From: an uncultured Candidatus Bathyarchaeia archaeon
Lineage (GTDB): Archaea; Thermoproteota; Bathyarchaeia; 40CM-2-53-6; JALHTG01
Length of the DNA: 31,348 bases
NCBI GenBank assembly: GCA_964521355.1
Contig: CAZFRJ010000001.1
Span: 1 to 31,348, forward strand
Direction of reading: 5' to 3'
Under the pieces are notes generated by a model. That model had not been told where the DNA came from. It did no database searches and worked only from the letters and a program-made list of their open reading frames with translations. Shown piece by piece: positions 29,286 through 29,883 of this stretch. The translations under genes and the position numbers were made by a program. Numbering within the stretch: position 1 is the stretch's first letter; each line of letters opens with the position of its first letter.

Positions 29286-29439
29286 ATAGCATACAATGTG
29301 GCTTCCGTTTCACGCTGACCGTCATGATGCGCCCTCCTCAAAGCCGCTCCTCCCGCAAGAGCCCGGCACAGTAGCCAGAGAAATCAAAAATGTCAAAAGA
29401 TGTTGTCTACTCAGACTTGATCATTGTGAGCGGGGGCAT

Positions 29440-29883
29440 ATGGAGCGAGCCGCAAAAGTCAGAACAGAGAGCGACTCTAACAAGTTGTTTCGAGCGGTTT
29501 TAGGAAATCAGGGACTGAACGCGCAAGAGCTGGCAAGTAAGATAGGCTGGAACCGCACTAAGACCAACAGAATGCTGGGCACCCTGGAAAGGAAGGGTTG
29601 GGTTGTCAGAAGGGTCTTTCCTGCAGCTCAGCCGAGAATAGCTGTGGAGCCAGACGCCGCTGTGAAGCGTTTGAGTAGCCAATTCGTGAGGCTGGCCGCG
29701 TGGAAGGCAAGGCTGCAGAGAAGAGAGAAGGAGCTCTTCGAGAAATGTGTCTCAGCGCAGATGGAGGGCGACTCCGTGAAGGCAACAATGTACGCCAACC
29801 AGTGCGCGGAGATAAGGAAAATCATCGGGCTTGTGACTAGGACTGAGCTTACGCTGTCAAGGTTGAGCACTCCCGCGATCTAG
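29440..29883 (+). CDS. Winged-helix (TrmB/MarR-like) domain fused to a truncated CdvB/ESCRT-III (Snf7) helical hairpin
   Basis: ATG at 29440 after GGGGG. Residues ~13-58 LFRAVLGNQGLNAQELASKIGWNRTKTNRMLGTLERKGWV (wHTH); residues ~75-142 ARLQRREKELFEKCVSAQMEGDSVKATMYANQCAEIRKI resemble CdvB alpha1-alpha2. Confidence 0.75.
   Translation: MERAAKVRTESDSNKLFRAVLGNQGLNAQELASKIGWNRTKTNRMLGTLERKGWVVRRVFPAAQPRIAVEPDAAVKRLSSQFVRLAAWKARLQRREKELFEKCVSAQMEGDSVKATMYANQCAEIRKIIGLVTRTELTLSRLSTPAI

Follow-up and report, generated by a model that had tools for sequence, protein, structure and literature searches.

The window, meaning the whole stretch of 31,348 nucleotides analysed here, contains a gene for a 147-residue protein in which a winged helix-turn-helix (wHTH) domain precedes the alpha1-alpha2 hairpin of the archaeal ESCRT-III protein CdvB. 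ESCRT-III proteins are known as membrane-remodelling polymers. In the protein described here, the ESCRT-III core hairpin is detached from helices alpha3-alpha5, the Vps4-recruiting tail and the membrane anchor and is wired to a domain of the DNA-binding type, and strong selection has preserved this fusion throughout an entire archaeal class. The two-domain architecture is common to the family, both domains are under purifying selection, the proteins share their end at alpha2, and the gene stands alone. It is a real, conserved and apparently undescribed domain architecture within the ESCRT-III/CdvB and wHTH families. The gene and its product are organized as follows.

29440 to 29883, forward strand: complete gene, 147 codons followed by TAG, encoding the wHTH domain, a linker and the CdvB-type alpha1-alpha2 hairpin
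29467 to 29613, forward strand: wHTH domain, residues 10-58, with helices 12-22, 28-35 and 39-51 in the AlphaFold2 model, then WVVRR; strongly basic
29554 to 29592, forward strand: predicted recognition helix, residues 39-51, which starts with the family-invariant (K/R)(S/T)KTNR
29614 to 29655, forward strand: linker or possible wing remnant, residues 59-72 (VFPAAQPRIAVEPD), the segment under the weakest constraint
29656 to 29766, forward strand: helix equivalent to ESCRT-III alpha1, residues 73-109, with R(E)KELFxKCVSAQ and the family-specific W88
29767 to 29772, forward strand: hairpin turn, G110-D111, from the alignment and the AlphaFold2 model
29773 to 29868, forward strand: helix equivalent to ESCRT-III alpha2, residues 112-143, with YANQCAE(I/V)RKI, Q121 and S140

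The open reading frame (ORF) at 29440-29883 had been noted in a preliminary description of this DNA, and it does translate into 147 residues and a stop, with all of the peptides quoted there. The quoted C-terminus is also present, but the stop does not directly follow ...TLSRL, as five more residues, STPAI, intervene. A mechanical ORF list gives a longer frame of 195 amino acids (aa) from an ATG at 29296, directly after the GNAT stop codon. This frame was rejected as the real gene, since the orthologues begin at the MERAAK/MQRVKRK position. The extension, 29296-29439, has no protein conservation and holds a promoter-like conserved non-coding block. Because of the orthologue starts and the presence of this block within the extension, 29440 is regarded as the real start; the extension should not be annotated. 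Start and stop are kept in the 69 aligned orthologues. Downstream, the stop is followed after only 113 nt by the convergent gene of a metallo-beta-lactamase-fold protein, such that no alpha3-alpha5 segment is hidden beyond the hairpin.

The CdvB-type hairpin and the winged helix

The hairpin originates from CdvB. The NCBIfam model of CdvB1/B2 matches with an E value of 3.3e-15 and 56.1 bits, residues 74-140 being placed on profile positions 40-106 of 212, and the CdvB model with 2.9e-13 and 50.1 bits, the alignment lying on its alpha1-alpha2 part. Both scores stay below the equivalog cut-offs of these models, which are 350 bits for CdvB1/B2 and 370 bits for CdvB. Among the sequences of the PDB, the protein as query retrieved Sulfolobus CdvB2 (9s97, E 2.5e-11) and CdvB (9s9j, E 1e-10), and the family profile the same two proteins with E values of 7e-16 and 8.5e-14, respectively. 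With the family profile, no other ESCRT-III protein and no generic coiled coil appeared in the PDB at E<=1, and the suspicion that the hairpin might score no better than generic coiled coils has thus lost its ground. The preliminary description had proposed a comparison of residues 70-147 with the Snf7 and CdvB profiles; the CdvB profiles match, but Pfam Snf7 (PF03357) does not, even at E<=10. The homology to CdvB is founded on the NCBIfam CdvB models, the PDB sequences and the superposition of structures. In an AlphaFold2 model built on 69 homologues the hairpin has a predicted local distance difference test (pLDDT) score of about 98, and Foldseek places it on alpha1-alpha2 of CdvB and CdvB2 with a root-mean-square deviation (rmsd) of 0.6-1.1 A over 66-70 residues at 43-45% identity. 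The match of the hairpin to CdvB is far beyond chance.

All 69 aligned members end four residues past alpha2. Helices alpha3-alpha5, the MIM2 or Vps4(CdvC)-recruiting tail and the C-terminal winged helix (wH) of CdvB are absent, no sequence being left beyond alpha2, and the N-terminal amphipathic membrane-binding helices are absent as well, their place being taken by the wHTH domain and a disordered linker. The order of domains proposed at the outset, with the wHTH before CdvB alpha1-alpha2 and neither alpha3-alpha5 nor MIM2 nor a C-terminal wH, is therefore borne out by Pfam, NCBIfam, the PDB and the AlphaFold2 model.

A column-by-column comparison of the 69 family members with 88 full-length CdvBs revealed 18 strongly conserved positions that are common to both: L78, L85, L92, R95, L99, F100, V104, A106 and D111 in the first half of the hairpin and at its turn, and A115, Y118, A119, N120, A123, E124, R126, K127 and L139 in the second half. 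At five other positions of the hairpin the family has switched to residues of its own:

Position 88: tryptophan in the family, near-invariant; never tryptophan in CdvB
Position 89: lysine in the family; lysine in 7% of CdvBs
Position 121: glutamine in the family (100%); glutamate in 99% of CdvBs
Position 140: serine in the family (96%); glutamate in 99% of CdvBs
Position 142: leucine in the family; leucine in 8% of CdvBs

The two cysteines C103 and C122 were considered as a redox or metal switch specific to the family and were discarded as such, since both are found in 37 of the 88 full-length CdvB representatives. The pair (KC-V in alpha1 and N-E-C-A-E in alpha2; residues 103 and 122 of the window protein) occurs in these 37 CdvBs of the non-Sulfolobales type, with V/I in Sulfolobus, and may be a redox or metal feature, so far unstudied, of one CdvB subfamily.

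In the N-terminal half, residues 15-58 exceed the cut-offs of four Pfam wHTH families, HTH_IclR with 31.0 bits (cut-off 22), TrmB with 27.3 (25.6), MarR with 25.5 (24.6) and HTH_24 with 24.3 (21.9), in agreement with the wHTH domain that the preliminary description had placed there. The best PDB relatives of this half, obtained with the family profile, are MarR-family regulators (E 3.9e-5), and the solved wH of CdvB was not matched at E<=1 by the same profile. The mean net charge of the family wH is +5.9, with a range from +3 to +8. The C-terminal wH of CdvB has a mean charge of -0.8 in 38 full-length CdvBs and carries P(D/E)DV where the family has (K/R)(S/T)KTNR. The wH of EAP30/Vps36 matches weakly, with E values of 0.015-0.002 and 15.4 bits, which is below the Pfam cut-off of 26.8. 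In the reverse search, the family wH profile gives the wH domains of CdvB at most 14.5 bits, fewer than it gives unrelated multi-wH proteins. Since the similarity to the CdvB wH is no better than that to IclR or TrmB and the reverse search is weak, the family wH is best described as a generic wHTH of the DNA-binding type. It would bind DNA through the basic recognition helix. A circular permutation, in which the C-terminal wH of CdvB was moved forward at the junction of tandem cdvB genes, was considered; the opposite charge and the different character of the recognition helix lean against it. As a separate observation, P0157, P0166, P0174 and P0191 (269-540 aa) contain four tandem wH repeats, each of which is closer to the family wH (up to 25 bits) than is the wH of CdvB.

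The segment between the two domains had been described as a TrmB-like linker. That likeness did not hold; in the AlphaFold2 model, residues 59-70 have pLDDT values below 50 and are modelled as disordered, and in the linker the ratio of nonsynonymous to synonymous substitution rates (dN/dS) rises to about 0.5.

Conservation, distribution and genomic context

A search of 5.8 billion proteins yielded 75 clusters. In 72 of them the protein is near-full-length, at 139-160 aa, and its identity to the window protein is 53-92%. The 69 aligned members have a common C-terminus (...LSKLSTPGG, then stop) and many invariant positions in both halves. Pairwise dN/dS values lie at 0.05-0.17 for each of the two domains, wH and hairpin, and at 0.05-0.20 for the complete gene, which was found in at least seven species-level metagenome-assembled genomes (MAGs), on contigs of up to 243 kb. 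All matches among GTDB species genomes are Bathyarchaeia MAGs, except for one contig assigned to Methylomirabilota, almost certainly through a binning error. As far as could be seen, the family is restricted to Bathyarchaeia. Problems of annotation or binning concern L011 (DATKOK010000093.1), P0049, P0059 and P0172. Some contigs with family members are labelled as bacteria (Methylomirabilota or Dormibacteraeota); they are probably archaeal contigs in the wrong bin. The name given to P0172 by JGI, 'peptidoglycan hydrolase CwlO-like protein', seems to be a coiled-coil artefact.

An exhaustive profile search of 1.84 billion representatives added divergent two-domain members of 144-162 aa (P0078, P0080, P0083, P0085, P0172), after which came ordinary CdvBs of 200-290 aa that match through the hairpin only. 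P0085 and P0172 form a second small Bathyarchaeia group with the same architecture and with the glutamate of CdvB at position 121, and a neighbour-joining tree of the hairpin (69 columns, low resolution) sets them apart from the core group. Independent origins of the two groups were considered and not adopted: both belong to Bathyarchaeia, and the hairpin data are too short for a decision. Among the 150 best matches, no wH fused to a full-length ESCRT-III protein was found. IMG/VR contigs yielded no relative and PHROGs gave generic HTH matches only, and on these grounds a viral or mobile origin was rejected.

Several relatives deviate from the common form. P0077 (151 aa) has normal N- and C-termini, and its residues 84-135 are the reverse-strand translation of a hairpin-coding segment that matches L004:10241-10396 on the minus strand with 73% identity and E 2e-16 and corresponds approximately to positions 29689-29844 of the window. 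This in-frame inversion of about 156 nt, which leaves the frame open, is either real or an assembly artefact. In the window copy, no convincing flanking inverted repeats were found; the idea of an invertible hairpin segment was dropped, and the inversion in P0077 was treated as a probable one-off or artefact. In MAG SPRUCE 253, L013:1-186 and L014:1-140 both start at about codon 89 of a second copy of the gene, the full copy being L012:10001-10444. L013 and L014 share 98.5% identity over 136 nt, their identity to the copy on L012 being 80%, and then diverge; positions 410-779 of L014 recur at L014:6601-6962 (92%), suggesting either that a repeat or mobile element caused a disruption or that strains differ. 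A second copy or strain, together with a repeat element, accounts for these contig forks better than an invertible segment does. P0135 (341 aa) and P0178 (556 aa) are of the CdvB type and extend well beyond alpha2; their long N-terminal extensions contain apparently transmembrane hydrophobic stretches, P0178 having in addition a large N-terminal domain, and they may be membrane-anchored ESCRT-III variants. P0100 and P0119 have N-terminal extensions that are unexplained.

The window is an ordinary segment of an archaeal chromosome, with genes for SRP54, KsgA, deoxyhypusine synthase, aIF5A and PFOR, hydrogenase/Hdr-like genes, Usp and PAS proteins, two ABC exporters and GNATs. It contains neither cdv nor ftsZ genes, and no tRNA or Rfam match was obtained. 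The neighbourhood of ABC transporters, GNAT and metallo-beta-lactamase-fold hydrolase is common to close relatives only; distant members occur in unrelated housekeeping contexts. A search for conserved gene neighbours accordingly ended without a candidate, no neighbour being kept across the whole family, and the gene looks monocistronic in every context examined. No cdv genes were found in the flanks (up to 10 kb on each side, less at contig ends) of the gene in the window, L001, L003, L004, L015, L016 and L017. As a contrasting control for cdv linkage served P0108 on locus L019, a 277-aa CdvB with a C-terminal wH that ranks with the full-length proteins closest to the family hairpin; L019:45-2814 is a canonical operon of cdvA (PF18822), cdvB (P0108) and an AAA ATPase gene (cdvC). 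Bathyarchaeia are reported to encode CdvABC together with several CdvB paralogues (PMC9723716; PMC10936438 supplement).

Two blocks are conserved in the DNA upstream of the gene.

29382 to 29400, forward strand: conserved block AATCAAAAATGTCAAAAGA, located 58 to 40 nt before the ATG and containing TCAAAA-N3-TCAAAA as a direct repeat
29424 to 29432, forward strand: conserved Shine-Dalgarno-like block TTGTGAGYG, located 16 to 8 nt before the ATG

The first block is kept in the window, L001, L004, L006, L007, L008 and L010, and both blocks are kept in orthologues down to about 60% protein identity. The AATCAAAAATGTCAAAAGA block is probably the promoter (A/T-rich, TATA/BRE-like) and possibly also an operator at which the protein acts on its own gene; the TTGTGAGYG block would be the Shine-Dalgarno sequence.

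Possible functions of the protein

We consider the protein to be a chromosomally encoded, Bathyarchaeia-specific DNA-binding regulator or nucleoid protein that uses an exapted CdvB hairpin for oligomerisation, a reading to which we assign a probability of about 0.5. According to this model, a basic wHTH of the MarR/IclR type is joined through a flexible linker to a lone alpha1-alpha2 hairpin copied from CdvB. Lacking alpha3-alpha5, the Vps4-recruiting tail and the amphipathic anchors, the hairpin would be unable to build or remodel a membrane-bound ESCRT-III polymer by itself and would serve instead as an oligomerisation module. Its surface that faces alpha3 and alpha4 in CdvB would now be exposed and partly redesigned, as indicated by W88, Q121 and S140. 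The most likely assembly would be a homodimer in which two hairpins form a four-helix bundle that mimics the closed ESCRT-III core and in which two recognition helices are placed on DNA. The protein would act as a transcription factor or nucleoid-associated protein and would probably regulate its own synthesis through the conserved upstream block. Because the glutamates at positions 121 and 140 are replaced by glutamine and serine, a tryptophan has been gained at position 88, and the anchors as well as alpha3-alpha5 and MIM2 are missing, the hairpin appears to be repurposed rather than to be a normal subunit of the polymer. DNA binding combined with self-association of the hairpin is the most economical of the functional hypotheses, and any connection with cell division is one of ancestry and only perhaps one of function.

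Several observations speak against this model. The hairpin keeps polar residues on its surface (R95, K97, E98, K102, D111, N120, E124, R126, K127), and such retention of the CdvB signature exceeds what a generic dimerisation coiled coil needs; by this measure the hairpin could still contact ESCRT-III partners. Homodimerisation is itself a prediction from sequence. In the window and 14 loci, the upstream motif turned up at no site except the promoter of the gene itself, and the search for a regulon with this motif was abandoned, that amount of DNA being too little for a conclusion. The wing of the wH lacks a confident model, its last strand being unmodelled by AlphaFold2, and a profile of the C-terminal wH of CdvB recognises the family wH with 15-27 bits and, in hhalign, with a probability of 96% and E 4.9e-9.

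The main alternative, a less probable one, is that the protein is instead a DNA-bound partner of ESCRT-III. The wH would sit on DNA and the hairpin would still dock onto full-length CdvB paralogues, from which it could accept the contacts of alpha3-alpha5 without having any of its own to donate. The protein might then be sequestered by the division polymer, or it might cap or nucleate the polymer, much as PspA controls PspF or as CHMP7-LEM2 ties ESCRT-III to chromatin. The preliminary description had likewise proposed, as hypotheses, that the protein dimerises through ESCRT-III filaments, is sequestered by them or acts as a cap tethered to DNA. The adherence of the hairpin to the CdvB consensus at the 18 strongly conserved positions, many of them polar residues of the surface, points in this direction, as do its exclusive matches to CdvB-type proteins, the presence of CdvABC and several CdvB paralogues in Bathyarchaeia and the precedents of PspA-PspF and CHMP7. 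A changed interface is indicated, however, by the conversion of alpha2 glutamates that are 99% invariant in CdvB into an invariant glutamine and a serine (96%) and by the new invariant tryptophan; moreover, there is no linkage to cdv genes in the seven contexts and no membrane-binding element. Since the glutamates are replaced, the tryptophan is gained, the amphipathic helices are absent and the gene never lies in a cdv locus, the sequence evidence leans partly away from canonical co-polymerisation. That a DNA-anchored hairpin docks onto CdvB polymers as a cap, a nucleator or a sequestered factor and thereby couples the position of the chromosome (the nucleoid) or transcription to division is a shade more doubtful still. 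Such a protein would be the archaeal single-polypeptide counterpart of the control of PspF by PspA or of the CHMP7-LEM2-chromatin link.

An unlikely explanation is that of a mini-CdvB that does not bind DNA. Because the profile of the CdvB C-terminal wH also recognises the domain, a protein-binding wH is conceivable, comparable to the 'broken' wH of CdvB, which binds the E3B peptide of CdvA, or to the wH domains of ESCRT-II. The protein could have arisen from the junction of the wH of one cdvB copy with the hairpin of the next, and it would be a competitor of CdvB for CdvA or regulate ring assembly in a dominant-negative way. Besides the profile match, this proposal draws on several full-length CdvBs that match the family profile in two stretches, on the unmodelled last wing strand and on the weak similarity to the EAP30/Vps36 wH. 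Yet DNA-binding families score equally well or higher (IclR 31 bits, TrmB 27), the family wH profile ranks the CdvB wH below unrelated multi-wH proteins, EAP30 stays under the Pfam cut-off, and MarR regulators rather than the solved CdvB wH are found in the PDB; the charge is opposite, and the recognition helix, acidic in CdvB, is basic and invariant in the family.

That the gene is a functionless product of cdvB decay, of a frameshift or of chimeric assembly is refuted by conservation and selection. In favour of this idea are the presence of only part of the ESCRT-III fold, the internal inversion of P0077 and the breaks of some contigs within the gene; against it, there are at least 70 independent clusters of equal length with a common stop (the 72 near-full-length clusters dispose of the earlier concern that intact orthologues might not exist), dN/dS is 0.05-0.17, at least seven species-level MAGs carry the gene, and the 113 nt to the convergent gene leave no room for alpha3-alpha5.

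The two better readings differ in what they would mean. If the hairpin only dimerises, the family provides a clean natural case of an ESCRT-III hairpin exapted as an oligomerisation module of a transcription factor and shows that the hairpin folds autonomously. If CdvB is still recognised by the hairpin, the protein would be the first direct physical link from DNA or transcription to the archaeal ESCRT-III division ring; how the state of the nucleoid is coordinated with division is an open question for Cdv-based division. The finding will surprise ESCRT specialists; the hosts are uncultivated.

Comparison with known systems

No wHTH-hairpin protein is described in the literature that was found, including a survey of ESCRT proteins from 2024 (PMC10936438) and a review from 2025 (PMC7619361). 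The assertion that no family with this architecture has been described is thus upheld by the literature search, with the qualification that in CHMP7 winged helices also lie N-terminal to an ESCRT-III domain. In databases, members are named either 'CdvB' (JGI) or 'MarR family regulator' (NCBI). Each name covers half of the protein, and the annotation is corrected accordingly.

With CdvB, CdvB1 and CdvB2 (NCBIfam NF041008, NF041005; PDB 9s9j, 9s97), the family shares a homologous alpha1-alpha2 hairpin that is 43-45% identical and superposes with about 1 A rmsd. Common to both is the signature R(D/E)KELFxKCVxAQ...GD...A.xYAN.CAE(I/V)RK, and the cysteine pair of the family is also found in many non-Sulfolobales CdvBs. 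In contrast to CdvB, the family has no alpha3-alpha5, no MIM2/Vps4-binding tail, no C-terminal wH and no N-terminal amphipathic anchors, is never encoded in a cdvA-cdvB-cdvC locus and has replaced the CdvB-invariant E121 and E140. CdvB paralogues require N-terminal amphipathic helices for membrane binding (PMC12818579). The protein should not be filed as CdvB, because it falls short of that family in the five-helix core, MIM2, the membrane anchor, the curated score and the locus.

With wHTH regulators of the MarR, IclR, TrmB and Lrs14 type, the family has in common that the cut-offs of the HTH domains are passed and that the domain is small and basic with a conserved recognition helix. Lrs14 and TrmB-like proteins follow a similar plan, a wHTH and then a helical oligomerisation element. 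The resemblance to MarR, IclR and TrmB is confined to an HTH core of 35-45 residues (residues 15-58); the flanking helices of MarR, the C-terminal ligand domain of IclR and the C-terminal domain of TrmB are missing. To our knowledge, and as judged from the literature searches, an ESCRT-III hairpin as C-terminal module has not been reported for any family of transcription factors.

The nearest architectural analogue is CHMP7, a eukaryotic ESCRT-II/ESCRT-III hybrid in which the order is the same, the winged helix being N-terminal to the ESCRT-III-type domain. CHMP7 carries a full Snf7-like polymerising domain, whereas the family has a single basic wH of the MarR/IclR kind and the hairpin only. 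In CHMP7, tandem membrane-binding wH domains of the ESCRT-II type (VPS25-like) precede the ESCRT-III-type C-terminal half, and the protein acts where membrane meets chromatin, when the nuclear envelope re-forms (PMC5069351). We found no evidence for a common descent of the CHMP7 fusion and the family fusion.

The nearest functional precedent is the PspA-PspF system. PspA(1-144), a coiled-coil fragment that is soluble, binds PspF and inhibits it (PMC6003685, PMC3128695), which sets a precedent for a hairpin of the ESCRT-III superfamily in the control of transcription. Neither CHMP7 nor PspA(1-144) is homologous to the family as a fusion. In the Psp system the DNA-binding protein does not share a polypeptide with the hairpin, and PspA is a full ESCRT-III protein, whereas in the Bathyarchaeia family the two are fused and the hairpin is derived from CdvB.

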